In this document: positions 144 to 60,662 of the stretch, in pieces
Position numbering within the stretch: the stretch's first letter is position 1
Layout of the letters: each line of letters starts with the position of its first letter
Source: Escherichia virus TH41
Direction: 5' to 3' (one strand)
Length of the DNA: 64,000 bases
Sequence record: MT446412.1
Notes under the pieces: generated by a model
Database searches by the model: none
Seen by the model: only the letters and a program-made list of their open reading frames with translations
Told to the model about the DNA's origin: nothing
Made by a program: the position numbers and the translations under genes

Positions 144-743
144 ATGTCAGGTTTATATAATCAAACTAACACGACTAACTTTATATTAGAGGTGAGCGAT
201 TCAAACCTCACACAGACCTTTAAACTCAACGTTCAAGACGTTACCCTCCCAGGAGTTCACATTCCTGTGACGGATGTTCCTGGCGGAACACAAGGTATAA
301 ATCGCTCCAGTCTTCCTGGTAGTACAATAGAATTCGACCCGCTGATTGTTAACTTTCTGTGTGACAAAGACCTAAGAGCGTGGCTTGACATCTATAAATG
401 GATGCTCTCGCTCAACAACTACATCACACACGAATCAAAAGCATGGCATCCGAAGGGTCGTCCCGAAGCGGTCACGCTTCATATCTTAGATAATAACAAG
501 GACAAAATTGTCATGTCAATCCATTACTATGGTGCATGGCCGTCCGACCTGTCAGAGATTCAGTATTCATATAAAGAAGATTCTGACCCGGCTATCAATG
601 CAACAGCAACTTTTAACTTTAAGTCTTTTGCTGTAGAAATTGATGGTATAATAATAGAAGGTAGACCACAGATTGATAGTAATGCAGCAATGCAACAGGA
701 AATCAGGTCTAAGTCAATGCATCCATCTATGAGAAACGTATGA
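144..743 (+). CDS. probable tail completion / sheath stabilizer protein (gp3-like, assigned by synteny only)
   Basis: 199-aa ORF, AAGGTG RBS 7 nt upstream, stop overlaps start of gene 1 (ATGA); T4 order 3-1-57A-57B. Confidence 0.45.
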   Translation: MSGLYNQTNTTNFILEVSDSNLTQTFKLNVQDVTLPGVHIPVTDVPGGTQGINRSSLPGSTIEFDPLIVNFLCDKDLRAWLDIYKWMLSLNNYITHESKAWHPKGRPEAVTLHILDNNKDKIVMSIHYYGAWPSDLSEIQYSYKEDSDPAINATATFNFKSFAVEIDGIIIEGRPQIDSNAAMQQEIRSKSMHPSMRNV

Positions 744-1416
744 AATTAATTGCGATTGTGGGTAAAAAACGCAGTGGTAAAGATACGACTGCTGATTATG
801 TTATTAGTCAAAATGGAACAAAGTGGCAGCTTGCAGGTCCGATTAAAGAAGCGCTTTATAACGCGTGGATTCGTCAAGACCTGCCACACAATTTGACCCT
901 GGAAAATTTTGATGGACAAGGTTACGACCGTGAAAAAACCTTAATAATGAACAACACCGAAGCTTATATTCTTCTGGTTGATGCTCTTGAATGGTTGAAA
1001 CAACAATACAATCTTGACCTTCCGAATCCGGATATGGTTCGTAAAATTATTGAATTTCACACACTAAATAATGTTGAGCCCTGGACAGTTAGACGTTTCA
1101 TGCAGACCCTTGGAACTGACATTGTTTGTACAGAGTTCGACAGCATGTTTTGGATTAAAACTTTTGCCTGCGACTATCTTGACAACCTCTATTCTGGATA
1201 TAAATATTACGTTGTCCCAGATGTTCGCCAAAAGAACGAACTTGATTCGCTTCGGGCGATGGGTGCTACAATAATCTTTGTAGAACGCGATGAAGCAAAT
1301 CATTCTACTGATACACACATTACGGAAGCTGGACTTCCACCACTAGCTAGTGACATTGTTATTAAAAACGATGGCACACTCGAAGAACTTTTTGATAAAA
1401 TTAATAAGGTAATATA

Positions 1417-1417
<1 letters not shown>
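740..1417 (+). CDS. 1: deoxynucleoside monophosphate kinase (gp1)
   Basis: N-terminal P-loop VGKKRSGKDTTADY and C-terminal THITEAGLP...NDGTLEELF closely match T4 gp1. Confidence 0.9.
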
Positions 1418-23635: not shown

Positions 23636-23639
23636 TTCA

Positions 23640-23668: not shown

Positions 23669-23677
23669 CATTTAGGG

Positions 23678-23707: not shown

Positions 23708-23735
23708 TATCCCATCAACTACTGAGGAGAACACA

Positions 23736-24175: not shown

Positions 24176-24179
24176 TATT

Positions 24180-24619: not shown

Positions 24620-24710
24620 TTTACTATCTTGAACCTTGGGCTTGGTTAACAATGGCTGTAGGGCCTGTTTTAATTGGTTTATTCTTTTCATGGTTAGCGA
24701 GGAAACTGTA

Positions 24711-24926
24711 ATGTTATATGACCCAAGTGGTAATTCTGAAAATGGTGTGATTGTTCTGGAGCCTGAGCATCCAGTTGGTGACGTATACCGCCCAGTTGAA
24801 GTGTGCGAATGTAATTTTGTTAAAGGTAATACTGGTGGGATTTCCATTGAGCAAGATGATGATGTTATTTACCTGGATGCAAGCCAAGTAGAAGCGCTTT
24901 ATAGTATTTTAAAACATAACCGTTGA
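24711..24926 (+). CDS. hypothetical protein
   Basis: ATG 24711 after GAGGAAA RBS; 71 aa. Confidence 0.4.
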   Translation: MLYDPSGNSENGVIVLEPEHPVGDVYRPVEVCECNFVKGNTGGISIEQDDDVIYLDASQVEALYSILKHNR

Positions 24927-24936
24927 GGAACAGAAA

Positions 24937-25960: not shown

Positions 25961-26967
25961 GAACAGTTATGAAAGGCTACTTCGGTAGCCACCTTTATGG
26001 AACAAGTACTCCTGAATCTGATGTTGATTTTAAAGAAATCTTTGTTCCTCATCCGCGAGATATCCTGCTCGGAACCGCGATGAACCATACCAACCTGAAC
26101 ACGAATAATACGGCTACCAAAAATACAAAAGATGATGTTGACCATGAACTTTATAGTCTGAAATATTTCTTTAAACTGGCGGCCGAAGGCGAAACCGTTG
26201 CTCTGGACATGATTCACACGCCGGCTGACCTGGTTGTCAAATCCGATTTACCAGATGTATGGAAGTTTATCCAGGATAACCGTTCACGGTTCTATACAAC
26301 TAACATGAAAGCCTATTTGGGGTATGTCCGTAAGCAAGCTTCCAAATATGGTGTTAAAGGTTCACGATTGGCCGCTCTACGTGGTGCACTGACAATCATT
26401 AACCAGATTCCTGAACAGTGGGTCGACTATCAAGAAGATGGTTCGACTAAGCAACGTCGAACTAAGGTAGAAGATATCAAACACCGGCTTCCAGAGAATG
26501 AATTCTGCGAATGGGTATTTCATAACCACGAGAAAACAGGTCCTCAAACGTTCTATACTGTTCTTGGACGTAAGTACCAAACAACGTTATCAATTACAGA
26601 GCTCAAGCAATCTCTGAATAAACTCGATGCCGAATATGGTGAACGTGCTCGTAAGGCAGAAGCCAATGAAGGTATTGACTGGAAAGCTCTGAGCCATGCT
26701 TATCGTGCTGGATACCAGTTGAAGGAAATCTATCAAACTGGTGACCTGGTTTATCCGCTCAAAAACGCTTCTATTATTAAAGCAATCAAAGCTGGCGATA
26801 TGCCTTTCAAAGTAGTCCAAGGCCTGTTGGAAAATACTGTCGATGAAGTCGAAGTCCTGGCTATCCAGGCCCATAAGAACGGTATGCCTGAGAAGGTAGA
26901 CATGAAGTTCTGGGACAAGTTCGTTGAAGAGGTATACCTTGACAACCACAATTCCTATTATCGTTAA
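25957..26967 (+). CDS. predicted nucleotidyltransferase (Pol-beta superfamily)
   Basis: YFGSHLYGTSTPESDVDF = hG[GS]-x9-13-DhD NTase signature; ATGA overlap start. Confidence 0.6.
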   Translation: MRTVMKGYFGSHLYGTSTPESDVDFKEIFVPHPRDILLGTAMNHTNLNTNNTATKNTKDDVDHELYSLKYFFKLAAEGETVALDMIHTPADLVVKSDLPDVWKFIQDNRSRFYTTNMKAYLGYVRKQASKYGVKGSRLAALRGALTIINQIPEQWVDYQEDGSTKQRRTKVEDIKHRLPENEFCEWVFHNHEKTGPQTFYTVLGRKYQTTLSITELKQSLNKLDAEYGERARKAEANEGIDWKALSHAYRAGYQLKEIYQTGDLVYPLKNASIIKAIKAGDMPFKVVQGLLENTVDEVEVLAIQAHKNGMPEKVDMKFWDKFVEEVYLDNHNSYYR

Positions 26968-26970
26968 ATT

Positions 26971-26999
26971 CTAAGGAACCCTTCGGGGTCCTTTTTTAT
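26971..26999 (+). terminator. Rho-independent terminator
   Basis: GGAACCC-TTCG-GGGTCC then TTTTTT. Confidence 0.65.
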
Positions 27000-27010
27000 T
27001 TTAAAAAGTA

Positions 27011-27040
27011 GTGTACAACCAGATGGTCATGAGGCATAAT
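27011..27040 (+). promoter_or_regulatory. early promoter
   Basis: GTGTAC-18 nt-CATAAT. Confidence 0.5.
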
Positions 27041-27081
27041 GATTCCATACTGAGTTAACAAATAAACAAACGGAGAATAAA

Positions 27082-27288
27082 ATGTTAGAATTAATCAAAG
27101 CTGCTGGTGAAAAAGGTCTGATGGTTAACACTCGTGACCCAGAACAACGTCAAGCATTTGGTGAGTTAAAAGCCAAAGGTCTGGTTAAAGCATCCCTTGG
27201 TATTGGTAATGCTTTGCGTGTGACTTTGACCCCTGCAGGTAAAGCAATGTTCTTCCCTAAACCATTACCAAAACGTCGTCGCAAGTGA
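27082..27288 (+). CDS. small basic protein, possible DNA-binding
   Basis: 68 aa with basic C-terminus PKRRRK. Confidence 0.45.
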   Translation: MLELIKAAGEKGLMVNTRDPEQRQAFGELKAKGLVKASLGIGNALRVTLTPAGKAMFFPKPLPKRRRK

Positions 27289-30346: not shown

Positions 30347-31336
30347 ATGACACGTAACGAATATATCCAGGCCTTTAACGCAACTATCGACACAAAAGTA
30401 AAACCATTAATAGGCGAATTGGCTATCCTTTTAATTATCAATTATTGGTTAAATCAGATTGACTCGACGATTGTTGCATCTGGGCGCTTCAAGAAAGACA
30501 TTGCAACTATTGCGAGTCGTGCTGGTAACGATGATATCAAGAAAACTTTTAAAAGTTCCCGAGTCCTGGCATACCTGGTTAATAAAGACCTTCTTAATAA
30601 GTTTGGTGTTGAATCCAGGCGTGGTAAAGGTACAATTGGATATCATTGGTTTGGCGATGTTGAAAAATACTATCTTGATAAACAAGGCTATACTGCTTCT
30701 GAATTCGCAAATTGTTGGGCTCGTGAATTCAGAGATAACAAAATGTCTATCATCAAATCAGCGACAAAAATGATGGATGGTGATTACCGCACTATCTGCC
30801 ATTTGGCAGAGCACATGATAAATGTTAAAGAGTCTGGCGAAAACCAGGTAATTATTACAGTTAAGTATGAATTCTTTACGCCAGTGGCTACTCCAGAAAA
30901 TGTCAAAAAGTATCTTGATGCTGCGAGCGCGCTTACTTCACAGCTGCAGTGCGCCCTTAACTATATGCGCACTGTTGAAAAAATTAAAGTAGACCCTATC
31001 ACCAGTACTCATGGTTGGAAAGGTTGGAAAATTGTGGCGACATTGCGTGAAGTTAAATGTGCAAAACAACCAACTGTTGCAGAAATTTATAAAAAGAAAA
31101 GTGAGGAAATTATGAATGCACCACAAGAAACCACCCTTGAAGACCTGATTGATAATCTGAATAATGAGCCAGTGGAACAAAAAGCGCCTGAAATTGTTGC
31201 TCTGGAAATGGCGTATAATAAAGCTCTTGCTGTTAATAAAAAGGCAACTGAAGACTATACCAAAGCCAAGCGACTTTGGGAAGAATCAACTAATCGTCTG
31301 GATAAACTGGAACAGGCTCTGGAGCTGCTGAAATGA
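30347..31336 (+). CDS. hypothetical protein with C-terminal coiled coil
   Basis: 329 aa. Confidence 0.55.
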   Translation: MTRNEYIQAFNATIDTKVKPLIGELAILLIINYWLNQIDSTIVASGRFKKDIATIASRAGNDDIKKTFKSSRVLAYLVNKDLLNKFGVESRRGKGTIGYHWFGDVEKYYLDKQGYTASEFANCWAREFRDNKMSIIKSATKMMDGDYRTICHLAEHMINVKESGENQVIITVKYEFFTPVATPENVKKYLDAASALTSQLQCALNYMRTVEKIKVDPITSTHGWKGWKIVATLREVKCAKQPTVAEIYKKKSEEIMNAPQETTLEDLIDNLNNEPVEQKAPEIVALEMAYNKALAVNKKATEDYTKAKRLWEESTNRLDKLEQALELLK

Positions 31337-31650
31337 AACAACGTTTAGCTGAAGATATTGCTTCAGCATCTAATACAGGTTTATTGGAATTTATTAAAGA
31401 AGCCGACCTTGCTGAAGTTGAACTGAATGGTAAGATTCATGGCTGTGATGATTATAGCCAAGATATTCCTGATTGGAATGCTATTATTAAAATTGTCGAA
31501 CGTCGTGAAAAAGCTTCTAAGAACGTTCCGAACTGTCCTATGTGTGGAACCGAACAGGTCCAGTTGGTTCAATGGCGGCATAATCCGCTTCAATATAAAT
31601 GCAGACATTGTAAACACCGATTTGAGCGAGAAGAAAATGGCAAAGCGTAA
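31333..31650 (+). CDS. zinc-ribbon protein
   Basis: CPMCGTEQ...CRHCKHRF. Confidence 0.5.
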
Positions 31651-33983: not shown

Positions 33984-34457
33984 ATGTTGTTGACTGGCAA
34001 ATTATACAAAGAAGAAAAACAAAAACTTTATGATGCACAAGCTGGTAAGTGTCCAATTTGCCACCGTGATTTGGACTCCGATGTTCAGGCCAACCATCTT
34101 GACCATGACCACGAATTGAACGGGCCAAAAGCTGGTAAGGTTCGCGGGTTACTATGCAATCTGTGCAATGGAACAGAAGGACAAATGAAGCATAAGTTCA
34201 GCCGTTCGGGTCTAAAAGGTCGCAATGTTGACTACCTGGAATGGTTAGAGAGTTTGCTTGTCTATCTGAAATCTGATTATACCGAAAACAATATTCACCC
34301 TAATTTTGTGGCAGACAAAGCCAAAGAGTTCGGTCGTCTGGGGAAAGAAGAAATGATTCGGGAAATGCTTTTGAACGGTATGACTTATAATGAATCTGAC
34401 ACAAAAACACAATTAATGGCTTCATTTAAGAAGCAGCTTAGAAAGAGTTTAAAATGA
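33984..34457 (+). CDS. 49: endonuclease VII (Holliday junction resolvase gp49)
   Basis: MLLTGKLYKEEKQK.YDAQ.GKC.IC.R.L..DVQANHLDHDHELNGPKAGKVRGLLCNLCN closely matches T4 gp49. Confidence 0.95.
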   Translation: MLLTGKLYKEEKQKLYDAQAGKCPICHRDLDSDVQANHLDHDHELNGPKAGKVRGLLCNLCNGTEGQMKHKFSRSGLKGRNVDYLEWLESLLVYLKSDYTENNIHPNFVADKAKEFGRLGKEEMIREMLLNGMTYNESDTKTQLMASFKKQLRKSLK

Positions 34458-36271
34458 CAATTGAAAACGAAATTGAAGGATTGATTCATAAAACTAATAA
34501 AGACCTTTTAAACGAGAATGCTAATAAAGATTCTCGTGTTTTTCCAACTCAACGGGACCTTATGGCTGGTATTGTATCTAAACACATTGCCAAAAATATG
34601 GTCGCGTCTTTTATTATGAAAGCACATGAAAGCGGAATTATTCATTTCCATGATATTGATTATTCCCCTGCTCTTCCATTTACTAATTGCTGTTTAGTAG
34701 ATTTAAAAGGAATGCTTGAGAACGGGTTTAAGCTCGGTAATGCACAGATTGAAACTCCTAAATCAATCAGTGTTGCTACTGCAATTATGGCACAAATTAC
34801 TGCGCAGGTTGCTTCCCATCAATATGGCGGAACGACTTTTGCGAATGTAGATAAAGTACTTTCTCCTTATGTTAAACGTACCTATGCGAAACATATTGAG
34901 GACGCGGAAAAATGGCAAATCACTGATGCGTTGAATTATGCTCAATCTAAAACAGAAAAAGACGTATATGATGCATTCCAAGCTTATGAATATGAAGTAA
35001 ATACTCTCTTTAGTTCAAATGGTCAGACTCCTTTTGTGACAATTACATTTGGTACTGGAACTGACTGGACTGAACGAATGATTCAGAAAGCAATTCTGAA
35101 AAATCGTATTAAAGGTCTTGGTCGTGATGGGATAACTCCTATTTTCCCTAAACTTGTTATGTTTGTTGAAGAAGGTGTTAATCTTTATAAAGACGACCCG
35201 AACTATGATATTAAGCAGCTTGCTTTAGAGTGTGCAAGCAAAAGAATGTATCCTGATATCATTTCAGCTAAGAATAACAAAGCTATCACTGGTTCATTTA
35301 TTCCTGTTTCTCCAATGGGTTGCCGTAGTTTCTTGGGCGTATGGAAAGATTCGACTGGTAATGAAATTCTTGATGGACGTAATAATCTTGGTGTTGTAAC
35401 ACTGAATCTTCCTCGCATTGCATTAGATTCTTATATTGGAACACAGTTCAATGAACAGAAATTTACTGAATTGTTCAATGAGCGAATGGATTTATGTTTT
35501 GAAGCTTTGATGTGTAGAATTAGTTCCTTAAAAGGAGTTAAAGCGACTGTTGCTCCTATTCTTTATCAAGAAGGTGCATTCGGGGTTCGTCTTAAACCTG
35601 ATGACGATATAATTGAGTTATTTAAAAACGGTAGAAGTTCAGTATCCCTGGGATACATCGGTATTCACGAATTGAATATTCTTGTCGGTCGTGATATTGG
35701 GCAAGAAATTTTGACTAAAATGAATGCTCGTCTTAAGCAGTGGACTGAAAGAACCGGATTTGCTTTTAGCTTGTATTCTACACCTGCTGAAAACCTGTGT
35801 TATCGCTTCTGTAAACTCGATACCGAAAAATATGGAAGTGTAAAAGATGTTACTGATAAAGGCTGGTACACTAACAGTTTCCATGTTTCAGTAGAAGAAA
35901 ATATTACTCCGTTTGAAAAGATTTCTCGTGAAGCCCCATATCATTTCATTGCGACAGGCGGTCACATTTCTTATGTTGAACTTCCTGATATGAAAAATAA
36001 CTTAAAAGGTCTTGAGGCTGTATGGGATTATGCTGCACAGCATTTAGATTATTTTGGTGTTAATATGCCAGTGGATAAATGTTTTACATGTGGAAGTACC
36101 CATGAAATGACTCCTACTGAAAACGGATTTGTTTGTTCTATTTGTGGAGAAACTGACCCTAAAAAGATGAACACAATAAGAAGAACATGCGGCTATTTGG
36201 GAAATCCGAACGAACGCGGATTTAATCTCGGCAAAAATAAAGAAATCATGCATAGGGTTAAACACCAATGA
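34454..36271 (+). CDS. nrdD: anaerobic ribonucleoside-triphosphate reductase NrdD
   Basis: 605 aa with C-terminal glycyl-radical motif RTCGYLG and zinc ribbon CxxC..CxxC; uninterrupted. Confidence 0.95.
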   Translation: MTIENEIEGLIHKTNKDLLNENANKDSRVFPTQRDLMAGIVSKHIAKNMVASFIMKAHESGIIHFHDIDYSPALPFTNCCLVDLKGMLENGFKLGNAQIETPKSISVATAIMAQITAQVASHQYGGTTFANVDKVLSPYVKRTYAKHIEDAEKWQITDALNYAQSKTEKDVYDAFQAYEYEVNTLFSSNGQTPFVTITFGTGTDWTERMIQKAILKNRIKGLGRDGITPIFPKLVMFVEEGVNLYKDDPNYDIKQLALECASKRMYPDIISAKNNKAITGSFIPVSPMGCRSFLGVWKDSTGNEILDGRNNLGVVTLNLPRIALDSYIGTQFNEQKFTELFNERMDLCFEALMCRISSLKGVKATVAPILYQEGAFGVRLKPDDDIIELFKNGRSSVSLGYIGIHELNILVGRDIGQEILTKMNARLKQWTERTGFAFSLYSTPAENLCYRFCKLDTEKYGSVKDVTDKGWYTNSFHVSVEENITPFEKISREAPYHFIATGGHISYVELPDMKNNLKGLEAVWDYAAQHLDYFGVNMPVDKCFTCGSTHEMTPTENGFVCSICGETDPKKMNTIRRTCGYLGNPNERGFNLGKNKEIMHRVKHQ

Positions 36272-36738
36272 ATTATGATAGAATTTATCCTTGCGATTTT
36301 GTGAATGGCCCTGGTTGTAGGGTCGTTCTTTTCGTTACAGGTTGTTTGCATAAATGCGAAGGGTGTTATAATAAATCAACATGGAATGCTAGAAATGGTG
36401 TTCCATTCACTGGTGAAACACTAGAACAATTAATTGAATGTTTGAATAATGATTATATAGAAGGATTAACTATAACCGGAGGAGACCCTCTCTATCCTGA
36501 TAACCGAGATGTTATTCACTCTGTGGTTCAAACTATTAAAAATCTTTATCCCAATAAAAGCATTTGGATGTGGACAGGATATAAGTTTGAAGATATTAAA
36601 CAACTAGAAATGCTTAAATATGTTGATGTTATTATTGATGGGAAGTATGAGAAAAATCTTCCGACCAAAAAACTGTGGCGAGGGTCAGATAATCAGCGAC
36701 TTTGGTCAAATACCGATGGGGTGTGGAAACATGATTAA
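36268..36738 (+). CDS. nrdG: anaerobic RNR activating protein NrdG (radical SAM)
   Basis: CLHKCEGC radical-SAM cluster motif; downstream of nrdD. Confidence 0.9.
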   Translation: MNYDRIYPCDFVNGPGCRVVLFVTGCLHKCEGCYNKSTWNARNGVPFTGETLEQLIECLNNDYIEGLTITGGDPLYPDNRDVIHSVVQTIKNLYPNKSIWMWTGYKFEDIKQLEMLKYVDVIIDGKYEKNLPTKKLWRGSDNQRLWSNTDGVWKHD

Positions 36739-36852
36739 ATTGAATTACATTATGGGTACTATAAATGATATGATTTTTCATTTTGGTCCAGAATTTTATT
36801 CGCAGTATAGTTTAGTGCTTATCAATGCTTGGTTAATCAATTAAGGGTAAAT

Positions 36853-39890: not shown

Positions 39891-40448
39891 ATGAACGAAA
39901 TTAAATTAACCAAGAATAACTATGTAAATAATAAAGAGCTTTTGAAAGCTATTTCGGAGTGGAAACAGAAGCTGAATGCGAACACCGACCCGAACAAAAT
40001 TATTCGCCAGAACGATGTTATTGGTCTGGCGATTATGCTTATAGCCGAAGGTCTTAGCAAACGTTTCAACTTCTCCGGATATACCCAATCCTGGAAGCAA
40101 GAAATGATTGCTGACGGTATTGAGGCCGCAATAAAAGGTCTTCACAACTTCGACGAAACAAAATACGATAATCCACATGCTTACATAACAATGGCTTGCT
40201 TCAATGCTTTCGTTCAGCGTATCAAAAAAGAACGTAAAGAAATGGCAAAGAAATATAGCTACTTCGTCCATAACGTATATGATTCACGTGACGACGATAT
40301 GGTGGCTCTGGCTGATGAAACATTTATCCAGGACATCTATGACAAAATGACACAGTACGAATCCTCTTTAGTTAAAGCGCCAGGGTCTGATAAGAGCGCC
40401 AAAGATAAAGAAGGTGATTTGGATTTTTTATATGGAACATCAATTTGA
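39891..40448 (+). CDS. 55: late-transcription sigma factor gp55
   Basis: [13 protein letters not shown].....[45 protein letters not shown], near-identical to T4 gp55. Confidence 0.95.
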
Positions 40449-40665
40449 TATTACCGATTTTTTAGATAAAATCGAGGAAGACTTTACGGCTCTCCCATAT
40501 TTCATTAAACTTTATCTGCGAGACATAAAAGGTCTTCCAATTGATATCGACCCTTTAAACGTCCGGAATCTGGAATTTACTTCTCCGGACAATAACGTTG
40601 ATTACCGTTATCATGTGGATAATGCTAATCTATATTTTACAATTGAGTTAACTCCCAAGGATTAA
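40432..40665 (+). CDS. hypothetical protein
   Basis: ORF overlapping end of gene 55; start uncertain. Confidence 0.4.
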
Positions 40666-40666
40666 T

Positions 40667-40978
40667 ATGCAAGCTCCAGATATTTCTCAACTGACCGATA
40701 AGCAGATTGAAGAAGCACAGGAACGTCTCGAAGAAGCGAACGCACTCGAAGCAACCAGTCAAGCAGCGAAGATTCTGAAAAAGAATGCTCGTGAAATTGC
40801 ACGACTGAATAAGCATGCTCAAGGCGCAGTGCTGGAAAACAATTTTGAAGCATACAAATACGCTTTAGTTAAACTGCGTGGGATTTACCGCCAACCCGTT
40901 ACGGAAGACCTGATTAAGTTGATGTGGGATTCTACTCGCAAACAAATTTGGGAAATCGTAAATGGCATTAGTAAATAA
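40667..40978 (+). CDS. hypothetical protein
   Basis: 103 aa helical. Confidence 0.45.
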   Translation: MQAPDISQLTDKQIEEAQERLEEANALEATSQAAKILKKNAREIARLNKHAQGAVLENNFEAYKYALVKLRGIYRQPVTEDLIKLMWDSTRKQIWEIVNGISK

Positions 40979-41162
40979 ACCCTTTAAACGGCTTCTTATT
41001 GGAGCCGCTTTCAGACTTCGCTCATATGGTAATATCTGTATCAAGCAGACCGAAACCGAATACAAAATGATGGGCCAATATTCTGATGGTATTTTTAAGA
41101 TTGAGCCTGTAGCCAAGGTTTGGGTAGATTCTCATCAACTTAAGAAATGGTGGCAACGATGA
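40962..41162 (+). CDS. hypothetical protein
   Basis: 66 aa. Confidence 0.4.
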   Translation: MALVNKPFKRLLIGAAFRLRSYGNICIKQTETEYKMMGQYSDGIFKIEPVAKVWVDSHQLKKWWQR

Positions 41163-41384
41163 TAACATGGACAGGTGGCTAATGAACGACGAACATCCAG
41201 ATTTTTAAGAGGTCATATGAATGACGAATTCGACGGATTTTGATAAGATTAAATCTGACAAAAACGAGATGATTCTTCAATTTGAAGCTGCTCGTATTAA
41301 AGCAGAAAATGAAGGTACTATTACCTATAAGCCTATCAAGTTCAGGTCTTCTCACGAACCTCTGTACGGTGTATTAATTGGAAA

Positions 41385-41407
41385 GGAAGCCTAGTGCTTC
41401 CTTTTTT
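41385..41407 (+). terminator. Rho-independent terminator
   Basis: GGAAGC-CTAGT-GCTTCC then TTTTTT. Confidence 0.7.
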
Positions 41408-41591
41408 GCTTTATATTCGGGATGATAAAATGAACCAACTGAGGAGAGTATATGGAATTATTTTTAGGATATGTCGTGTTATTCATGGCATTCTACACAT
41501 TCACAAGAGCTTGTTGGATAGGATTCTTTTCTACTCCTGACGGGTTCATTTCAGTAATTTTATTTTGCATTGCAATAACGGTGCTTGGCTT

Positions 41592-42611
41592 ATGAAAATT
41601 TTAAATTTAGGTGATTGGCACTTAGGTGTCAAAGCTGACGACCCATGGGCTCAAAACATTCAACGCGATGGTATTTTACAGGCGATTGCATATTCCAAAG
41701 CGAATGGGATTAAAGTCTGGATTCAATATGGTGATATTTTTGACGTCCGTAAGGCCGTAACGCATAAGACGATGGAATTCAGCCGTGAGATTATGGAACT
41801 CCTTCGTGAAGCAGGAATTACTATGCACACGATAGTCGGGAACCATGACATGAATCTGAAGAATAAGATTCATCCTAATGCTATCACTGAGCTCCTGAAT
41901 AAGTATGACCATGTTAAAATCTATGATAAGCCAACGACTGTTGATTTTGACGGTTGTCAGATTGATATGATTCCATGGATGTGCGACGAGAACGCAACTG
42001 ACATTCATCAACACATCAAAACTTCTGGGGCTGAATATTGCATCGGTCACTGGGAATTAACCGGGTTTTATTTCTATAAAGGATTGAAATCCCACGGACT
42101 TGAGCCTGATTTCCTTAAGAAGTACAAGCAAGTTTGGTCTGGTCACTTTCACACAATTTCAGAAGCTGCAAACGTTAAGTACATCGGGACCCCATGGACA
42201 TTAACAGCAGGTGATGAGAACGACCCACGCGGGTTCTGGGAATTTGATACCGAAACCGAAGAGATGAAATTTATTCCGAATGAAACCACCTGGCATCGGA
42301 AGATTTTTTATCCAAACGAAACTATTAACTACGACGACTTCAAAGACTTATCAGTCCGTGTTATTGTAGAAAAAGTCGATAAAGACCTGACCAAGTTCGA
42401 ATCTGAATTAGAAAAGCGTGTACATGAATTGCGTGTTGTCAATAAGGTTGATAACAGTGTTGATACGACTGACTCCGAAGAAGAGTTAGACATAAAACGC
42501 TTAACTGATATGATGGCAGAATATATTGATGCATTACCTGACACCAATGAGAAAGAATCAAAAGCTCTTAAAGCATTGGCCAACAAATTATATCTTGAGG
42601 TGCAACCGTGA
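41592..42611 (+). CDS. 47: recombination endonuclease subunit gp47 (Mre11-like)
   Basis: MKILNLGDWHLGVKADD...GNHD phosphoesterase motifs; matches T4 gp47 start. Confidence 0.9.
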   Translation: MKILNLGDWHLGVKADDPWAQNIQRDGILQAIAYSKANGIKVWIQYGDIFDVRKAVTHKTMEFSREIMELLREAGITMHTIVGNHDMNLKNKIHPNAITELLNKYDHVKIYDKPTTVDFDGCQIDMIPWMCDENATDIHQHIKTSGAEYCIGHWELTGFYFYKGLKSHGLEPDFLKKYKQVWSGHFHTISEAANVKYIGTPWTLTAGDENDPRGFWEFDTETEEMKFIPNETTWHRKIFYPNETINYDDFKDLSVRVIVEKVDKDLTKFESELEKRVHELRVVNKVDNSVDTTDSEEELDIKRLTDMMAEYIDALPDTNEKESKALKALANKLYLEVQP

Positions 42612-44999: not shown

Positions 45000-45407
45000 A
45001 TGAACAACGTAACTGCTAAAGATATCCAAGTTAAAACCATCCGCACCGACGCCAACCCACATAACCAAAACCGCATCCGCAAATCCTGGGTCCTGGCATG
45101 TGATGAAGCATCTGCTACCCGTCTGCAGTCTCTGCCGCAAGAAATTAAATTCATGCTGTACGGTGTGATTGATACTGATGTATCTGATAAGTGGATTGAA
45201 CTGATGCGTAATCACTACAACGATTCACTGGCTGCTGGTGCTAAACTGGTTATCGACCGTGACGGTTCCGAACGTCTTGAAGATGATTATTGTGTTAACT
45301 CTGACGACCATCTGGTGCAAGCTGGTTCTATTATTGCTGCGCAACTTCCAGAGTATATTGAATCTCTTCCGGAAGCTATCCGCAAACAAATGGCAGTTGT
45401 TGCTTAA
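45000..45407 (+). CDS. hypothetical protein (RpbA position)
   Basis: 135 aa from ATG 45000 with GAGAG RBS; between 46 and 45. Confidence 0.45.
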   Translation: MNNVTAKDIQVKTIRTDANPHNQNRIRKSWVLACDEASATRLQSLPQEIKFMLYGVIDTDVSDKWIELMRNHYNDSLAAGAKLVIDRDGSERLEDDYCVNSDDHLVQAGSIIAAQLPEYIESLPEAIRKQMAVVA

Positions 45408-45434
45408 TTTTTGATTTGAATAAAAGGTAATTAA

Positions 45435-46130
45435 ATGAAATTCTCTAAAGACACTATCGCAGTTCTGAAAAACTTCACCTCCATTTACTCTGGCATTATG
45501 CTTAAGCCGGGTAATACCATCCTGACTCGTTCTGTAACCGGAGCGTCATATGGTGAATCTGAAATCAATGATACAATCGACTTTGAAGCTGCAATTTATG
45601 ACCTGAACGGCTTCTTAAGTATCCTGGGTCTGGTAACTGACCAAGCTGAAGTATCTCTGGCTGAAGATGCATCGAATATCATTATCAAAGACCAACGTTC
45701 AACGATTCACTGGCCTGCAGCTGACCCGAGCACTATCGTGTTCCCTGCTAAGAAGATTCCTTTCCCGGTAGCTAAGGTTATCTTCGACCTGAAAGGTAGT
45801 GACCTGCAGCAGCTTCTGCGTGTGGCTGGTGGGTTGTCTCTGGATACTTTTGCAATCACCAACAAAGACGGTAAGATTGTTATCCATGGTTATAACCAGC
45901 TCGAAGATAAAGAATTAGCACGCCCATTGTATTCCCTGGTGTGTGGCGATTACGAAGGCGATGCAGCGTTTAAATTTATCATTAACAAACTGAACATGAA
46001 AATGATTCCGGCTGATTACCGTGTTATGCTTTGGGCGAAAGATGATAAATTTGCTACGAAGTTTGAAGGCACACAAGCAAGCTATGTGATTGCAATGGAA
46101 CAAGGCTCTAGCCACGAATTCCAAGATTAA
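45435..46130 (+). CDS. 45: sliding clamp gp45
   Basis: MKFSKDTIAVLKNF..I.SGIMLK...IYDLNGFL.IL.LV...E.S...D..I.I.D.RSTI.WPAADPST closely matches T4 gp45. Confidence 0.95.
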   Translation: MKFSKDTIAVLKNFTSIYSGIMLKPGNTILTRSVTGASYGESEINDTIDFEAAIYDLNGFLSILGLVTDQAEVSLAEDASNIIIKDQRSTIHWPAADPSTIVFPAKKIPFPVAKVIFDLKGSDLQQLLRVAGGLSLDTFAITNKDGKIVIHGYNQLEDKELARPLYSLVCGDYEGDAAFKFIINKLNMKMIPADYRVMLWAKDDKFATKFEGTQASYVIAMEQGSSHEFQD

Positions 46131-48407: not shown

Positions 48408-51122
48408 ATGCAAGAATTTTATTTAACTATCGAACAAATCGGTGACAACCTACTCGAACGATATATTGACAAGAATGGTCATGAACGTGTTCGTGAAATC
48501 CCTTATGCTCCATGCTTGTTTATGCACGCCCGCGAAGACCAAGCTGCAAAGTATACAGACATCTATAATAAAGGTTGTGTGAAAAAAGAATTCGATTCCA
48601 TGCGTGATGCATCCCAGTGGATGAAGCGAATGAATGACATGGGTCTCGAAGCTATGGGTATGGACGACTTTAAACTCGCATACTTGTCCGACCGTTACCC
48701 ACACGAAATCAAATATGATTCAAGTAAAATCCGTGTTGCTAACTTCGATATCGAGGTGACATCTCCTGATGGGTTCCCTGAACCGTCTGAAGCACGTCAC
48801 CCTATTGACGCCCTGACGCACTATGATTCGGTAGACGATAAATTCTATGTCTTTGACCTTTTGGGCTCACCATACGCCACTGTGGAGCAATGGTCTATTG
48901 ATATTGCTGCTAAGCTGCAGGAAGACGGTGGTGATGAAGTCCCGGAAGAAATCCTGGAAAAAATTGTTTATATGGCTTTCGATTCAGAAGAAGAAATGCT
49001 CCAGCAGTATTTGGTATTCTGGAACGAGAAAACTCCGGTTATGTTAACTGGTTGGAACATCGAGAAGTTTGATATTCCATATATCTACAACCGCCTTAAA
49101 AATGTATTTGGTGAAGCTACAGCAAAACGTCTGAGCCCACATCGTCGTACAAAAGTTAAGGTCATTAACAACGGCTTTGGCGAAGAACAAGAAATCATTC
49201 AGATTCTGGGTATCTCTGTTCTGGATTATCTGGACCTGTATAAAAAGTTCAGCTTCACAAACCAACCGTCTTATTCGTTGGATTATGTTGCGGAATCTGA
49301 ACTGGGTGTTGGTAAACTCCCGTATGATGGCCCGATTTCTAAACTGCGCGAATCAAATCACCAGCGGTATATTTCTTATAACATCATCGACGTTTATCGT
49401 GTTGTGCAGATTGACCGTAAGCGACAGTTTATTAACCTGAGTCAGTCAATGGGTTATTACGCAAAAATGCAGATTCAGTCTGTATTCAGCCCAATCAAAA
49501 CTTGGGATGCGATTATCTTTAACAGCTTGAAGACTCAAAACAAAGTTATTCCGGAAACCAAATCGCATGTTCGCCAATCGTTCCCTGGTGCATTTGTTAA
49601 GGAACCTATTCCGAACGCATACAAATATGTAATGAGCTGTGACTTAACATCTCTGTATCCGAGCATCATCCGACAGATTAACATCAGTCCAGAAACGATT
49701 GCCGGGTCATTTGCGCCAGCCCAGATGTATGAATACATCGCAGGAACTGCTGACCGTCCATCTGATACATTTAGTTGTGCTCCAAATGGTATGATGTATT
49801 TTAAAGATGTTGCGGGTATTATTCCGACAGAAGTCACCAAGGTGTTTAATCAGCGTAAAGAGCACAAAGGCTATATGCTTGCGGCTCAACGTAATGGTGA
49901 ACTGATTAAGGAAGCTCTGCGTAATCCAGGAACTGGCACAACCGAACCAGAAGTTGATTATCGTCATGACTTTGATGACAATATGAAAACGGCCCTGCAT
50001 GGTCTGAATCAAACAGTCCTAAATGGTATGCTGTACAAAGCGCAGATGGAAGAAGTTGCAGGCATGACCGCACAGATTAACCGTAAACTGCTTATCAACA
50101 GTTGTTATGGCGCTCTGGGTAATATCTGGTTCCGTTACTTTGACCTGCGAAATGCAACCGCGATTACATCTTTCGGACAACTTGCACTGCAGTGGATTGA
50201 GCGTAAAGTTAACGAATACTTCGATAGTGTTTGTGGTACAAGCGGTGAAACTTATGTGTTCTATGGCGATACTGACTCCATTTATATCCAGTGCGATAAC
50301 CTGATTAAAAAGGTTGGTGGCGAATCTAAATTCCGCGATACAAACCACCTGGTTGACTTCATGGACAAGTTTGCGAAAGACCGTCTGGAACCGGCAATCG
50401 ATAAAGCTTTCCGTGAGCTGGCTGAATACATGAACAACAAACAGCACCTTATGTTTATGGACCGTGAGGCGATTGCATGTCCTCCGCTGGGTTCGAAGGG
50501 TGTGGGTGGATTCTGGACGGCGAAGAAGCGTTATGCGTTGAACGTGTACGATATGGAAGGCACACGTTATGCTGTTCCAAAATTGAAAATCATGGGTCTG
50601 GAAACTCAAAAGTCGAGTACTCCAAAGGCATGTCAGAAAGCTCTGAAAGAATGCATCCGCCGTATGCTGCAAGAAGGTGAAGAATCTCTGCAGACATACT
50701 TCAAGGAATTCAATAAGGAATTTAATGAGCTTAACTACATGACCATCGCAGGGGTATCATCGGTTAACAACATCCAGAAATATAATGAAGGTGGTTTCCC
50801 TGGATTTAAGTGCCCGGCTCATATCAAAGGTGTGCTTGCATATATGCGTGCAACTAAAGGTCTGAAGACTGTTCCGCAAATCATGGAAGGGGAAAAGGTG
50901 TATGTACTTCCTCTTAAAGTCGGCAACCCATTTGGTGAAACCGTGATTGCATGGCCATCAGGGATTGAACTCCCGATTGAAATTCGTGACCAAGTCTTGC
51001 AGTGGATGGACTACAACACACTGTTCCAGAAGACTTTTGTCAAACCGTTAACAGGTTTCTCTGAAGCTGCAAAGGTTGATTACGAAAAGAAAGCAACTCT
51101 TTTTGATATGTTTGACTTTTAA
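48408..51122 (+). CDS. 43: DNA polymerase gp43 (family B)
   Basis: 904 aa; exo motifs (FDIE, YNIIDV), polymerase motifs (DLTSLYPSII, YGDTDS) and long colinear similarity to T4 gp43. Confidence 0.97.
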   Translation: MQEFYLTIEQIGDNLLERYIDKNGHERVREIPYAPCLFMHAREDQAAKYTDIYNKGCVKKEFDSMRDASQWMKRMNDMGLEAMGMDDFKLAYLSDRYPHEIKYDSSKIRVANFDIEVTSPDGFPEPSEARHPIDALTHYDSVDDKFYVFDLLGSPYATVEQWSIDIAAKLQEDGGDEVPEEILEKIVYMAFDSEEEMLQQYLVFWNEKTPVMLTGWNIEKFDIPYIYNRLKNVFGEATAKRLSPHRRTKVKVINNGFGEEQEIIQILGISVLDYLDLYKKFSFTNQPSYSLDYVAESELGVGKLPYDGPISKLRESNHQRYISYNIIDVYRVVQIDRKRQFINLSQSMGYYAKMQIQSVFSPIKTWDAIIFNSLKTQNKVIPETKSHVRQSFPGAFVKEPIPNAYKYVMSCDLTSLYPSIIRQINISPETIAGSFAPAQMYEYIAGTADRPSDTFSCAPNGMMYFKDVAGIIPTEVTKVFNQRKEHKGYMLAAQRNGELIKEALRNPGTGTTEPEVDYRHDFDDNMKTALHGLNQTVLNGMLYKAQMEEVAGMTAQINRKLLINSCYGALGNIWFRYFDLRNATAITSFGQLALQWIERKVNEYFDSVCGTSGETYVFYGDTDSIYIQCDNLIKKVGGESKFRDTNHLVDFMDKFAKDRLEPAIDKAFRELAEYMNNKQHLMFMDREAIACPPLGSKGVGGFWTAKKRYALNVYDMEGTRYAVPKLKIMGLETQKSSTPKACQKALKECIRRMLQEGEESLQTYFKEFNKEFNELNYMTIAGVSSVNNIQKYNEGGFPGFKCPAHIKGVLAYMRATKGLKTVPQIMEGEKVYVLPLKVGNPFGETVIAWPSGIELPIEIRDQVLQWMDYNTLFQKTFVKPLTGFSEAAKVDYEKKATLFDMFDF

Positions 51123-51124
51123 GT

Positions 51125-51154
51125 GTTTACAACGGCAATGGATTGCCGTATGAT
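51125..51154 (+). promoter_or_regulatory. early promoter
   Basis: GTTTAC-18 nt-TATGAT with inverted repeat CGGCAAT/ATTGCCG in spacer. Confidence 0.5.
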
Positions 51155-51191
51155 TACCCCATCAACTGATGAATAACTTGAGGATATTAAA

Positions 51192-51434
51192 ATGGAAACA
51201 TTAATTGCGGGTACTGTTGTTCTTGGTGCAGGTTCTTTCTTCCTGGCTGCACTGGCATATTTTCTGCCGTGGATTATCGCGCTACTGCGTGGAACCAAAA
51301 GTAATTGCGGAATCTTCTTTGTTAACCTCCTGTTAGGTTGGACAATGGTCGGATGGTTTATTGCATTTATCTGGGCACTCGTTGCTGAACGTAAATCAAA
51401 CGCACAAGTAATTATCATCAAGGAATCAAAATGA
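51192..51434 (+). CDS. small two-TM membrane protein (Imm-like by position)
   Basis: 80 aa, two TM helices; adjacent to gene 43 as T4 imm. Confidence 0.45.
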   Translation: METLIAGTVVLGAGSFFLAALAYFLPWIIALLRGTKSNCGIFFVNLLLGWTMVGWFIAFIWALVAERKSNAQVIIIKESK

Positions 51435-51582
51435 AGATAATTACAATTATTGTATTGATTGCATTTTTTAGTATGTCAATCTATTGGGCAATAATGACTC
51501 CACATATGATTCCAACTTTAATTTTGGGTTGGGTATTTTTGGGGCTCCAAGCCCGCTATGAATGTTTTAATTAGGAAGCAAA

Positions 51583-52086
51583 ATGAAAAAGTTAGCTATC
51601 GCAGCTGTTATGCTGCTATCTGGTTGTGCTTACCAGGGTGATGTTGTTAATGCCAACGAGATTGGTAAAGCGCGAATTGCTGCAGACCGTCAGGTGCATA
51701 ATGGTTCCTTTGATTTCAAAGGTGGTACTGGACTTATCTACAAACGCGACAACAATCAATGTGGAAACAACTGCGCGAAATATGCTCAACAAGAAATTGA
51801 GTACAAACGCGAGCAAGCTGCGAAGCATGACGAAATCATTGCCAAGCTGGAAGCAGAAACCAAGCGACAAAATGACCTGGACACTGTTAACCAGATTTCA
51901 CAGGTCTGCATGTCATACATCAATATGCAGATAAACATCATGCGCGCAGAAGCTTATCAGGCAGCGGAGATGGGTTCTCCAAAAGCTAATGAGTACCGCG
52001 ATATGTATCAGCGTTCTGCTCAAAACCGTCTGAGCTATATTAATAAATGTGTAGCTAAAGAGAAAGCACGCCAAGGTATTAACTGA
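51583..52086 (+). CDS. lipoprotein
   Basis: Signal peptide with lipobox LLSGC; 167 aa. Confidence 0.55.
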   Translation: MKKLAIAAVMLLSGCAYQGDVVNANEIGKARIAADRQVHNGSFDFKGGTGLIYKRDNNQCGNNCAKYAQQEIEYKREQAAKHDEIIAKLEAETKRQNDLDTVNQISQVCMSYINMQINIMRAEAYQAAEMGSPKANEYRDMYQRSAQNRLSYINKCVAKEKARQGIN

Positions 52087-52277
52087 TGTTATTATTACTT
52101 CTGATTGTTGTAACAGTAATTGGTTTGCTGCTATTAGAAAAGCGTAATAAGCATTTGGCTGAAGAAAACTGGAAATGTGGTAACGTTTACTGAGTTAATT
52201 GCTCTAAAAATACAGTGATATAATTATCCTATCTTAAACCTGTGAGAAAAATATAATGGTGCCTATGGAAAAAATGA

Positions 52278-53456
52278 ATGTCTATTGCAGATTTGAAATC
52301 CCGTTTGATTAAAGCTTCTACATCCAAAATGACTGCGACTCTTACCAAGTCCAAGTTCTTTAATGATAAAGATGTAGTTCGTACAAAAATCCCGATGCTG
52401 AACATTGCAATCAGCGGTGCACTAGATGGTGGTATGCAGTCAGGTTTGACTATTTTTGCTGGTCCGTCAAAACACTTTAAATCCAATATGGGTTTAACGA
52501 TGGTCTCTGCATATATGAACAAATACCCCGATGCAATCTGTTTGTTCTATGATTCAGAATTTGGTATCACAGAAGCATATCTTCGTGCAATGAAAGTTGA
52601 CCCGGAACGTGTTATCCATACACCAATCCAGTCGGTTGAACAATTGAAAGTTGATATGGTTAACCAGCTTGAAGCAATTGAGCGTGGTGAAAAAGTCATT
52701 ATCTTTATTGACTCAATCGGTAACATGGCGTCGAAAAAAGAAACAGAAGATGCGATGAACGAAAAAGTTGTTGGCGATATGACTCGTGCTAAATCCCTGA
52801 AATCTCTGTTCCGTATTGTTACCCCATATTTTAGTATCAAGGATATTCCTTGTGTCGCGGTTAACCATACAATTGAGACGATTGAGATGTACAGCAAAAC
52901 CGTTATGACCGGTGGCACAGGTGTTATGTATTCCGCAGACACCGTATTCATTATCGGCAAACGCCAGATTAAAGAAACTGGTAAAGAACTTGAAGGCTTC
53001 CAATTTGTTCTGAACGCCGAAAAATCTCGTATGGTCAAAGAGAAAAGTAAATTCTTCATTGATGTAAAATTCGATGGGGGTATTGACCCGTATTCTGGCC
53101 TGCTTGATATGGCAATGGAAATCGGATTTGTGGTGAAACCAAAAGTTGGTTGGTATAACCGTGAATATCTTGATGTTGAGACCGGCGAAATGGTCCGCGA
53201 AGAAAAATCATGGCGCGCAAAAGATACTAACTGCACCGAATTCTGGGGTCCGCTGTTCAAGCACGAACCTTTCCGTGATGCAATTAAACGCCATTACCAA
53301 CTGGGTGCAATCGATAGCAATGCTGTTGTTGATGCTGAAGTTGATGCGCTTATTGCCTCCAAGGTTGAAAAATACTCTGCTCCTGAAGGTAAGACAAAAC
53401 CGTCCGCTGCAGATATCGAAAACGATTTAGATATGATGGAAGACCTTGATGAATGA
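52278..53456 (+). CDS. uvsX: recombinase UvsX (RecA-like)
   Basis: LKSRLIKASTSK.TA.LT.SKFFN.KDVVRTKIPM.NIA.SG...GGMQSGL.I.AGPSK.FKSN.GLTMVS near-identical to T4 UvsX. Confidence 0.97.
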   Translation: MSIADLKSRLIKASTSKMTATLTKSKFFNDKDVVRTKIPMLNIAISGALDGGMQSGLTIFAGPSKHFKSNMGLTMVSAYMNKYPDAICLFYDSEFGITEAYLRAMKVDPERVIHTPIQSVEQLKVDMVNQLEAIERGEKVIIFIDSIGNMASKKETEDAMNEKVVGDMTRAKSLKSLFRIVTPYFSIKDIPCVAVNHTIETIEMYSKTVMTGGTGVMYSADTVFIIGKRQIKETGKELEGFQFVLNAEKSRMVKEKSKFFIDVKFDGGIDPYSGLLDMAMEIGFVVKPKVGWYNREYLDVETGEMVREEKSWRAKDTNCTEFWGPLFKHEPFRDAIKRHYQLGAIDSNAVVDAEVDALIASKVEKYSAPEGKTKPSAADIENDLDMMEDLDE

Positions 53457-60143: not shown

Positions 60144-60662
60144 ATGGCACATTTTAACGAATGTTCTCAACTGATTGCTGGTGTTGATAAAGCTCAAGGC
60201 GCTTATGATAATGCAATTTTTGAAGGCACTGACCCACTGCAAATTATGCTTGATATGCAGAAATCGTTGCAGGTTCGTCTGGCTAAAGAAAAACCAGAAT
60301 ATAACGAACATCCTGATAACCTGGCGACTGCTGGTGAAGTTGTTACCTGGCTCCGCAACCAGAAAGATTATATTGATGATGAATTCCGTGAACTGATTAC
60401 TGCATTAGGTGGCATGTCCAATGGCGAGAAAGCTGCCTCGGCCGTATGGAAGCCTTGGAAAGCACAACATGGCGAAATGCAGCAAACCCTAATTAATGAT
60501 TTATCTCCTGAAGACCAGCTCGAAATTAAATTTGAGATGATTGATATCCTGCACTTTGTTCTGAATATGTTCCATGGCCTTGGACTGACTGCAGAAGAAA
60601 TCTTTAAATTGTATTACCTGAAAAATGCTGAGAACTTTGCTCGTCAAGACCGAGGTTATTAA
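60144..60662 (+). CDS. 56: dCTPase/dUTPase gp56
   Basis: MAHFNEC..LI.GVDKAQ...DPLQ.MLDMQ..LQ.RLA...IDDEFREL...SPEDQLEIKFE..DI.HFVLNMF.GLG..AEEIFKLYYLKN.ENFARQD.GY matches T4 gp56. Confidence 0.9.
   Translation: MAHFNECSQLIAGVDKAQGAYDNAIFEGTDPLQIMLDMQKSLQVRLAKEKPEYNEHPDNLATAGEVVTWLRNQKDYIDDEFRELITALGGMSNGEKAASAVWKPWKAQHGEMQQTLINDLSPEDQLEIKFEMIDILHFVLNMFHGLGLTAEEIFKLYYLKNAENFARQDRGY

Follow-up and report, generated by a model that had tools for sequence, protein, structure and literature searches.

The interval between gene 43 and uvsX of T4-like phages poses the question of how cytosine would be modified in a phage that lacks the enzymes encoded there in T4. In the stretch of DNA analysed here, 64,000 nucleotides of Escherichia virus TH41 (sequence record MT446412.1; hereafter the window), this interval (the slot) holds neither gene 42, which encodes the hydroxymethylase for deoxycytidine monophosphate (dCMP), nor the beta-glucosyltransferase gene beta-gt. 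The window belongs to the T4-like genus Gaprivervirus (Tevenvirinae), whose members carry no known enzyme for a non-canonical base, yet possess DenA, DenB, Alc and the deoxycytidine triphosphatase (dCTPase) (Nikulin & Zimin 2021). The missing modification genes are a published trait of the genus, of which the initial annotation of the window was unaware. What would be new here is an Asp-type form of Td, the protein annotated as thymidylate synthase, as the candidate dCMP methylase of Gaprivervirus, bringing the chemistry of phage XP12 into a T-even-type framework. Based on residue signatures and genome comparisons, we put at roughly 0.6 the probability that Gaprivervirus DNA carries 5-methylcytosine (5mC) made by a Td turned dCMP methylase. 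A literature search that lacked most subscription journals found no paper that connects Gaprivervirus with 5mC or with a Td of the Asp type.

The window shows about 99% identity to Escherichia phage UPEC01. A 2.5-kb query spanning the slot matched UPEC01 at 99.9% and phages SP18, VR7, VR20, VR26 and RZ at 94-98%; the NCBI taxonomy lists vr7, vr20, vr25, vr26, sp18 and arezed as species of the genus. Covering about 38% of a genome of about 170 kb, the window was complemented by UPEC01 (MW233709), in which genes outside it were read. Within the window, the two ends of the UPEC01 record adjoin directly (window 13132 and 13133 corresponding to UPEC01 169801 and 1), and the UPEC01 'partial genome' (169,801 bp) is therefore a complete circular permutation. 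As such, it stands in for the approximately 106 kb beyond the window, which makes a genome-wide negative result sound.

The absence of gene 42 and of the transferases is real, genus-wide and already published, and it is no artefact. In the window and the complete UPEC01 sequence, tblastn with T4 gp42, beta-gt and the alpha-glucosyltransferase alpha-gt gave a best E-value of 3.9. When T4 gp42 and three RB69-type homologs, namely the thymidylate synthase (TS)-like proteins of SHSML-52-1, UGJNEcP3 and fHe-Yen9-01, were run with phmmer --max against all six-frame open reading frames (ORFs) of both sequences, Td alone was returned. The match of the RB69-type 5-hydroxy-dCMP synthases to Td was weak, and the sugar-activation and transferase proteins of the cassette described below (557-aa, SIS, kinase, 297-aa, API and 386-aa) had no match at E<0.1. 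In the interval between genes 55 and 47, flanked by gp55 (39891-40448) and the end of gp47 at 42611, the largest ORF measures 103 amino acids (aa), compared with 400 aa for alpha-gt in T4, and tblastn found no alpha-gt there; VR5 labels the corresponding ORFs A-gt.2 to A-gt.5. The initial annotation was thus right that the slot encodes neither a hydroxymethylase nor a glycosyltransferase and that alpha-gt is missing between 55 and 47. It had left two options, that the modification genes lie elsewhere or that the chemistry differs, and had suggested searching the remainder of the genome for gene 42, dCMP deaminase and transferases. In UPEC01 this search finds the deaminase homolog Cd and neither gene 42 nor transferases, so that a gene 42 homolog elsewhere was rejected as a candidate. 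Together with the Td evidence, this genome-wide absence favors a different chemistry.

At the same site in Tequatrovirus and several other genera, a T4-type gene 42 is found whose product is 55-100% identical to that of T4. In Mosigvirus, Tegunavirus and Dhakavirus, the last being the sister genus of Gaprivervirus, the slot instead contains a cassette of 4-6 kb (about 4 kb in Dhakavirus) encoding a protein of about 557 aa, SIS-type isomerase-like, kinase-like and TS-like proteins, and a protein of about 300 aa. The TS-like protein is a 5-hydroxy-dCMP synthase and no hydroxymethylase, and the cassette arabinosylates its product (NAR 2026, PMC13326640). The Dhakavirus cassette sits precisely between the lipoprotein gene and a conserved segment upstream of uvsX, and in VR5, UGJNEcP3 and JS98 it follows imm and the lipoprotein gene. 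The flanks in Dhakavirus and in the window are the same (43, imm, a 47-aa ORF, the lipoprotein gene and the uvsX promoter region), whereas the entire cassette is missing from the window phage, including the TS-like gene with its E143, T147, N169 and D177. The DNA also differs, being glycosylated in Dhakavirus VR5 and unglycosylated in Gaprivervirus VR7 (PMC6326788). The 43-uvsX interval of the window is the 'empty' state of the cytosine-modification site in T4-like phages. We looked for relics of the cassette at the junction and found none; even VR7 has a spacer from lipoprotein to uvsX unlike that of the window. Both borders of the VR5 cassette (22411-22489 and 26663-26724 of its segment L011) carry a similar promoter-like motif, GTG(A)TATAAT..CCTA, which probably represents ordinary early-promoter consensus and not a scar of recombination, though it could also mark a site of cassette gain or loss. 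Gene 42 alleles were earlier credited to JS98-type phages and to all four Acinetobacter phages (Petrov 2010). The JS98 allele is explained by the RB69-type gene that JS98 carries, while the one assigned to Acinetobacter phage 133 is contradicted by its slot and by a search of 150 of its 160 kb.

For Gaprivervirus, an unknown protein was proposed (Nikulin & Zimin 2021), and the puzzle was still open in a later study by the same authors (Nikulin & Zimin 2025). The initial annotation had correctly noted that gene 56 is present and had taken its dCTPase as a marker of 5-hydroxymethylcytosine (hmC). This premise is weak, since gene 56 is listed for almost every T4-related phage, also where gene 42 is missing (Petrov 2010, Table 4). 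The distribution of Alc and DenB, on the other hand, tracks gene 42 (Petrov 2010), and the real paradox therefore comes from Alc and DenB, not from gene 56. UPEC01 has both genes at sites beyond the window: Alc (45270-45839) matches its Pfam family at 1e-48 and is 56% identical to T4 Alc, and DenB (13428-14021) is 46% identical to T4 DenB, compared with 72% between Dhakavirus and T4. For Alc, no pairing of Gaprivervirus, Dhakavirus and T4 reaches 57% identity. Ndd of UPEC01 matches Pfam at 8.5e-69, DenA matches GIY-YIG, and Cd matches its family. DenB and Alc both discriminate modified from unmodified cytosine. The deoxynucleoside monophosphate (dNMP) kinase gp1 shows as little as 46-51% identity between any two of Gaprivervirus, Dhakavirus and T4, well short of the replication genes, and in the comparison of UPEC01 with VR5 it ranks 7th lowest of 123 proteins. 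Judged by sequence, this equidistance would fit three different modified-dCMP substrates.

Compared with the glucosyl-hmC system of T4, Gaprivervirus shares the architecture and gene order (45-44-62-regA-43-imm-...-uvsX-40-41) and keeps gp56, gp1, Cd, DenA, DenB, Alc and Ndd, the apparatus for the exclusion and destruction of DNA with unmodified cytosine. It differs in having no gp42, alpha-gt or beta-gt, in that td is predicted to have taken over the modification of dCMP, and in DenB and gp1 being less than 50% identical to the T4 proteins, with Alc at 56%. Phage DNA was analysed by Gordeeva et al. 2018 (PMC6326788) using restriction enzymes with and without T4 beta-glucosyltransferase. In that paper and its supplement, T4 and VR5 DNA are described as glycosylated, T4147 DNA as hydroxymethylated, and VR7 DNA as having 'modified cytosines' and being unglycosylated; VR7 is reported there as fully restricted by BREX. 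Outside these genera, Krischvirus phage SAP has fully modified cytosines, with no homolog of a 5-hydroxymethyl- or 5-hydroxy-dCMP synthase and no detected glucosyltransferase (PMC13390438).

The sole TS-fold gene of UPEC01 is the one annotated 'td' (88218-89078, outside the window). Its product has LGLPFDIGSY; the counterpart in E. coli ThyA, as in VR5 Td, is LGLPFNIASY, which places an Asp at the position of ThyA Asn177. With residues numbered by alignment to E. coli ThyA, positions 143, 147, 169 and 177 are L, H, D and N in Td and ThyA, D, T, D and D in T4 gp42, and E, T, N and D in the 5-hydroxy-dCMP synthases. The Gaprivervirus 'Td' has L, H, D and D. The alignment recovers the published residue code for the known enzymes, and Gaprivervirus Td forms a fourth class that keeps L143, C146 and H147 (MALPPCH) as well as R166, S167 and D169 (QRSVDVF). 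The substitution N177D shifts TS from deoxyuridine monophosphate (dUMP) to dCMP and yields 5-methyl-dCMP (5mdCMP) (PMC8670742, citing Hardy & Nalivaika 1992 and Liu & Santi 1992). A Leu at position 143 keeps water out and accompanies methyl products, Asp or Glu there accompanies hydroxymethyl products, and D169N is the mark of 5-hydroxy-dCMP synthases (PMC13326640). The combination L143-H147-D169-D177 is thus a predicted signature of a dCMP methylase.

Precedent comes from Xanthomonas phage XP12, in which a TS homolog makes 5-methyl-dCMP and 5mC fully replaces cytosine. In a 2024 preprint (bioRxiv 10.1101/2024.12.05.627091), seven TS homologs chosen by residue 177 were tested alongside the XP12 enzyme as positive control, and five of them made 5mdCMP in E. 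coli together with T4 gp1; in such phages a deaminase supplies deoxythymidine triphosphate (dTTP). Because 5mdCMP was made under co-expression of T4 gp1, a T4-type dNMP kinase can feed 5-methyl-dCMP into the deoxynucleoside triphosphate pool. The likeness to the XP12 methyltransferase lies in the predicted reaction, the diagnostic Asp177, the one-enzyme logic and a deaminase for thymidine nucleotides. The Gaprivervirus enzyme, whose product is a predicted one, differs in being built on a T4-type Td scaffold, in a myovirus with the T-even apparatus against deoxycytidine (dC). The lone substitution in a canonical active site is also that of the engineered TS mutants N177D (E. coli) and N229D (L. 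casei), for which conversion to a dCMP methylase is reported (cited in PMC8670742). Unlike these mutants, Gaprivervirus Td is natural and carries 23 further clade-specific changes, which may tune its activity.

Among proteins of solved structure, the nearest by sequence to Gaprivervirus Td is that of T4 (1TIS, 5.7e-128), with which it is colinear end to end, and identity to Tequatrovirus Td (RB33) is 65%. Among the 120 best homologs in a database of 5.8 billion proteins, four clusters of Gaprivervirus type have GLPFDIGSY, while 114 other Td proteins of Tevenvirinae have the Asn form (GLPFNIASY). A further Asp-type Td, P0070 (GLPFDIASY), is 69% identical to the SP18-type protein and comes from an uncultured T4-like contig (Logan contig SRR24146912_91236, 3953-4831), where the gene order is frd.2-frd.1-frd-td. 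At columns where conservation in the other homologs is at least 97%, the Gaprivervirus Td clade has 24 changes of its own, and those near the active site include A179G, A182G, F149L and Q162L. Asp-type Td and the empty slot occur together. There are 32 phage records with a cassette-less slot and 32 with an Asp-type td segment, and all 30 slot records among the matches listed (32 in total) recur in the Asp-type set.

The prediction based on Gaprivervirus, as far as sequence can tell, held in a second, distant and independent lineage without gene 42, that of Acinetobacter phage 133. This phage has DenB, Alc and the dCTPase without a known modification enzyme (Nikulin & Zimin 2021). Its slot, between 43 (43B) and uvsX, contains imm, small ORFs and a homing endonuclease, with no modification gene, and phmmer over 150 of its 160 kb found no TS-fold ORF besides Td. 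The phage 133 td (30517-31464 of segment L019) encodes L143, H147, D169 and D177 within GKPFDIASY, and the protein is 45% identical to Gaprivervirus Td.

Relative rates were assessed by a three-taxon test, in which identity between Gaprivervirus and T4 was compared with that between Dhakavirus and T4. The respective values are 65 versus 80% for Td, 46 versus 72% for DenB and 65 versus 74% for Frd, while the controls gave 60 versus 61% (gp43), 65 versus 65% (gp41), 61 versus 61% (Ndd) and 67 versus 69% (gp56). Gaprivervirus is thus the long branch for Td, DenB and Frd, and the housekeeping genes are equidistant from T4. We treat this rate argument as supporting evidence only.

In the pathway that we propose, the modified cytosine would be made by the gene annotated td, on a T4-Td scaffold with Asp177. 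The dCTPase gp56 would supply dCMP and deplete dCTP, Td would methylate dCMP to 5-methyl-dCMP, and gp1 would phosphorylate this product towards 5-methyl-dCTP. Incorporation of 5-methyl-dCTP by the polymerase would then give virion DNA in which 5mC replaces C and which bears no sugars. Deoxythymidine monophosphate (dTMP) and dTTP could come from host ThyA or from a residual dUMP activity of Td; alternatively, the dCMP-deaminase homolog Cd could act on the methylated pool, as in XP12. A broader version of the proposal includes Gaprivervirus and, independently, phage 133 and the uncultured T4-like lineage. In each, the ancestral dCMP hydroxymethylase or hydroxylase encoded in the slot would have been lost, TS would have been converted by N177D together with tuning changes, gp1, DenB and Alc would have co-diverged, and the DNA would carry 5mC for C. 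To this wider scenario we give about an even chance.

Other explanations differ in what they make of the Asp in Td. Following the idea of Nikulin & Zimin, an unrecognised enzyme or a new non-canonical base could be at work, with the Asp incidental or otherwise used. About 12% of UPEC01 lies outside ORFs with a VR5 homolog, and phage SAP is a comparable unsolved case of modified cytosines without a matching TS homolog. However, apart from nrdD and nrdG, which were lost in VR5, all UPEC01 ORFs without a VR5 counterpart are at most 191 aa long, and no enzymatic Pfam domain was found in the ten largest of them, so a swapped-in genus-specific enzyme was rejected. Nor does this explanation account for why Asp-type Td pairs with the empty slot (32 records in either set) and recurs in phage 133, and we regard it as unlikely. 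Slightly less probable still is that the Asp-type Td is a dCMP hydroxymethylase, giving unglycosylated hmC DNA as in alpha-gt/beta-gt mutants of T4. Asp177 is indeed common to T4 gp42 and Gaprivervirus Td, the Alc, DenB and gp56 apparatus of T4 type evolved around hmC, and VR7 behaves towards BREX like the unglycosylated T4147 (PMC6326788). The Td residue at position 143, though, is the Leu of methylating enzymes and not Asp or Glu, and His147 and the remaining Td active site are intact. In addition, the supplement of the BREX study calls T4147 'hydroxymethylated' and says of VR7 merely that it 'has modified cytosines', despite a test with T4 beta-glucosyltransferase (PMC6326788).

It is improbable, in our estimation, that the DNA contains ordinary cytosine, with gp56, Alc and DenB having drifted in specificity or being confined to host DNA through timing or compartment. 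Gene 56 does occur in many T4 relatives with dC-DNA (Petrov 2010), and DenB and Alc are strongly diverged from T4 (46% and 56% identity). Such a phage is nevertheless hard to reconcile with the modified cytosines reported for VR7 by restriction analysis (PMC6326788), or with Alc and DenB following the distribution of gene 42 (Petrov 2010). It would also leave the conserved Asp177 of the sole TS unexplained, a change that would cripple dTMP synthesis. An artefact, in which gene 42 and the transferases lie beyond the window or were lost in assembly, has a very small chance of being correct. The partial coverage by the window and the 'partial genome' label of UPEC01 would allow for it; the gapless span across both UPEC01 ends, the negative tblastn and phmmer results over 169,801 bp, the same slot in 32 independent records and the agreement of two published surveys speak against it.

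Several points weigh against 5mC made by Td. The td gene lies outside the 64-kb window, so its state in the source genome is deduced from 32 of 32 relatives. That VR7 DNA is 'not hmC' is our reading of the authors' wording in the BREX study. On plain identity between Gaprivervirus and Dhakavirus, Td is no outlier (67%, with a genome median of 75%); this form of the rate argument was rejected, and the asymmetry appears only in the three-taxon comparison. Cd and UvsX show the opposite asymmetry, T4-like genomes are mosaic, and part of the rate signal could come from gene exchange. Alc, DenB and gp56 would need to spare 5mC-DNA or 5-methyl-dCTP, and DNA containing 5mC is a substrate of McrBC-type restriction. 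The gene arn has been reported only in T-even-type phages and CC31 (Petrov 2010), and no arn search was made here. Finally, the residue code is correlative, and two of the seven predicted enzymes gave no 5mdCMP (bioRxiv 10.1101/2024.12.05.627091).

Apart from the absent enzymes, the remaining genes of the slot make up an ordinary imm-centred membrane module (Table 1). The four ORFs named in the initial annotation are all found on the plus strand between 43 and uvsX (80, 47, 167 and 35 aa, the third with the lipobox LLSGC). Of the T4 content of the slot, gene 42 and beta-gt alone are missing: the initial annotation had named imm as a T4 gene of this interval and had not recognised the 80-aa protein as Imm. 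This protein matches Pfam PF14373 Imm_superinfect (1e-17; 64.2 bits, above the gathering cut-off of 27.9) and phrog_1039 (1.9e-30) and is 52% identical to T4 Imm. It is a small protein adjoining gene 43 with two hydrophobic stretches on the Kyte-Doolittle scale, as expected of a two-transmembrane protein of this family, and AGGA precedes its ATG. The 47-aa ORF is a genuine conserved small membrane protein. It matches phrog_3610 over its full length (7.6e-27) and follows imm in VR7 (98% identity), Mosigvirus (57%), Tegunavirus (60%) and Dhakavirus (51-56%), and a partial match lies in the imm-42 spacer of T4 (57% over 30 aa).

The N-terminus of the 167-aa protein, MKKLAIAAVMLLSGC, reads as a signal peptide with a terminal lipobox (L-[AS]-[GA]-C), from which lipidation is predicted. 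The protein matches phrog_1754 (4.7e-47) and has orthologs in VR7 (98%) and Dhakavirus (48-50%). Orthology to T4 Imm.1 was considered and is not established, the likeness being limited to the N-terminal 28 aa (50%, pairwise E=3e-6), which comprise the signal peptide plus some 12 residues beyond it. Matches to PHROG 'Cor' and 'lipoprotein' and to Pfam FerB and DUF553 were discarded as signal-peptide or sub-threshold matches. The T4 Imm/Imm.1 region likewise has an orthologous imm with an adjoining lipoprotein gene (imm.1 in T4), but the order is 43-imm.1-imm in T4 and 43-imm-47aa-lipoprotein in the window phage. For the 35-aa ORF, which is annotated in UPEC01, neither PHROG nor Pfam gave a family above threshold, and comparison with VR7, VR5 and T4 yielded no significant match; VR7 carries a different, longer sequence in its place. 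The segment upstream of uvsX is near-identical in the window and VR7 and is kept in VR5 downstream of the 297-aa cassette gene. A promoter (simple sigma-70) and terminator scan of the slot, including this segment, gave nothing above shuffled expectation. The counterparts of gene 43 in UPEC01 and VR7 are labelled DNA polymerase.

Table 1. Features of the window, with UPEC01 positions where a second site was recorded.
Feature	Position in window	Strand	Evidence	Position in UPEC01
Gene 1, dNMP kinase	740..1417	+	Pfam DNMK 5e-77; 100% to UPEC01 gp1	
55-47 interval, small ORFs of a-gt.2 to a-gt.5 type, no alpha-gt	40414..41595	+		
Gene 43, DNA polymerase, upstream slot border	48408..51122	+	904-aa ORF; 60% identity to T4 gp43	
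imm, superinfection immunity protein, 80 aa	51192..51434	+	Pfam, PHROG, identity to T4 Imm	
Conserved membrane peptide after imm, 47 aa ('42.1' in VR7)	51431..51574	+	phrog_3610	
Predicted lipoprotein, 167 aa	51583..52086	+	Signal peptide, lipobox LLSGC	
Hydrophobic ORF, 35 aa, strain-specific, coding status uncertain	52086..52193	+		
Conserved uvsX-upstream segment with promoter-like GTGATATAAT	52194..52277	+	Endpoint of Dhakavirus cassette	
uvsX, recombinase, downstream slot border	52278..53456	+	392-aa ORF; 79% identity to T4 UvsX	
Gene 56, dCTPase/dUTPase	60144..60662	+	67% to T4 gp56, 85% to VR5 gp56; Pfam dUTPase_2, PRA-PH	
Dispersed repeat	23664-23729			41288-41353
Dispersed repeat	8031-8088			102327-102384
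Dispersed repeat	26974-27086			68533-68653

Further observations concern the window as a whole. Its plus strand corresponds to the T4 minus strand, with the gene order 45, 44, 62, regA, 43, slot, uvsX, 40, 41. Positions 11797-25052 are only 88-92% identical to UPEC01, while the remainder is about 99% identical; the source phage is not the UPEC01 isolate but a mosaic relative of it. Short segments of the window (58-120 nt) have second sites in UPEC01 at 84-98% identity (Table 1), and these dispersed repeats are possibly promoter or regulatory elements. The sole Rfam matches in the window are two adjacent tRNAs (5237-5310 and 5313-5386), annotated as tRNA-Arg and tRNA-Met at the matching region of VR5. 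The anaerobic ribonucleotide reductase genes nrdD and nrdG lie at about 34450-36740 (UPEC01 20515-22799) and have no counterpart in Dhakavirus VR5. The annotation of the UPEC01 record is unreliable and its product names are not to be trusted: ORFs of NrdC.x type with 280-330 aa are called 'thioredoxin', Cd 'tRNA-specific adenosine deaminase', and small ORFs 'molybdenum ABC transporter'.

If Gaprivervirus DNA does carry 5mC made by Td, the consequences would be practical as well as evolutionary. Nikulin & Zimin could not rate Gaprivervirus phages for therapy; such candidates would be predicted to be sensitive to BREX and to type IV systems that depend on 5mC, McrBC among them. Genomes with 5mC throughout act differently when exposed to many restriction enzymes or analysed by bisulfite, enzymatic methyl sequencing (EM-seq) or nanopore workflows. 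For annotation, residue 177 of a 'td' product would have to be checked before it is named a thymidylate synthase. With the Gaprivervirus enzyme, nature would have repeated the classic N177D engineering experiment, and 5mC would be a third cytosine chemistry in Tevenvirinae, after glucosyl-hmC and arabinosyl-5-hydroxycytosine. It would follow that in these phages a modification enzyme can be replaced by a retooled housekeeping paralog at another locus.

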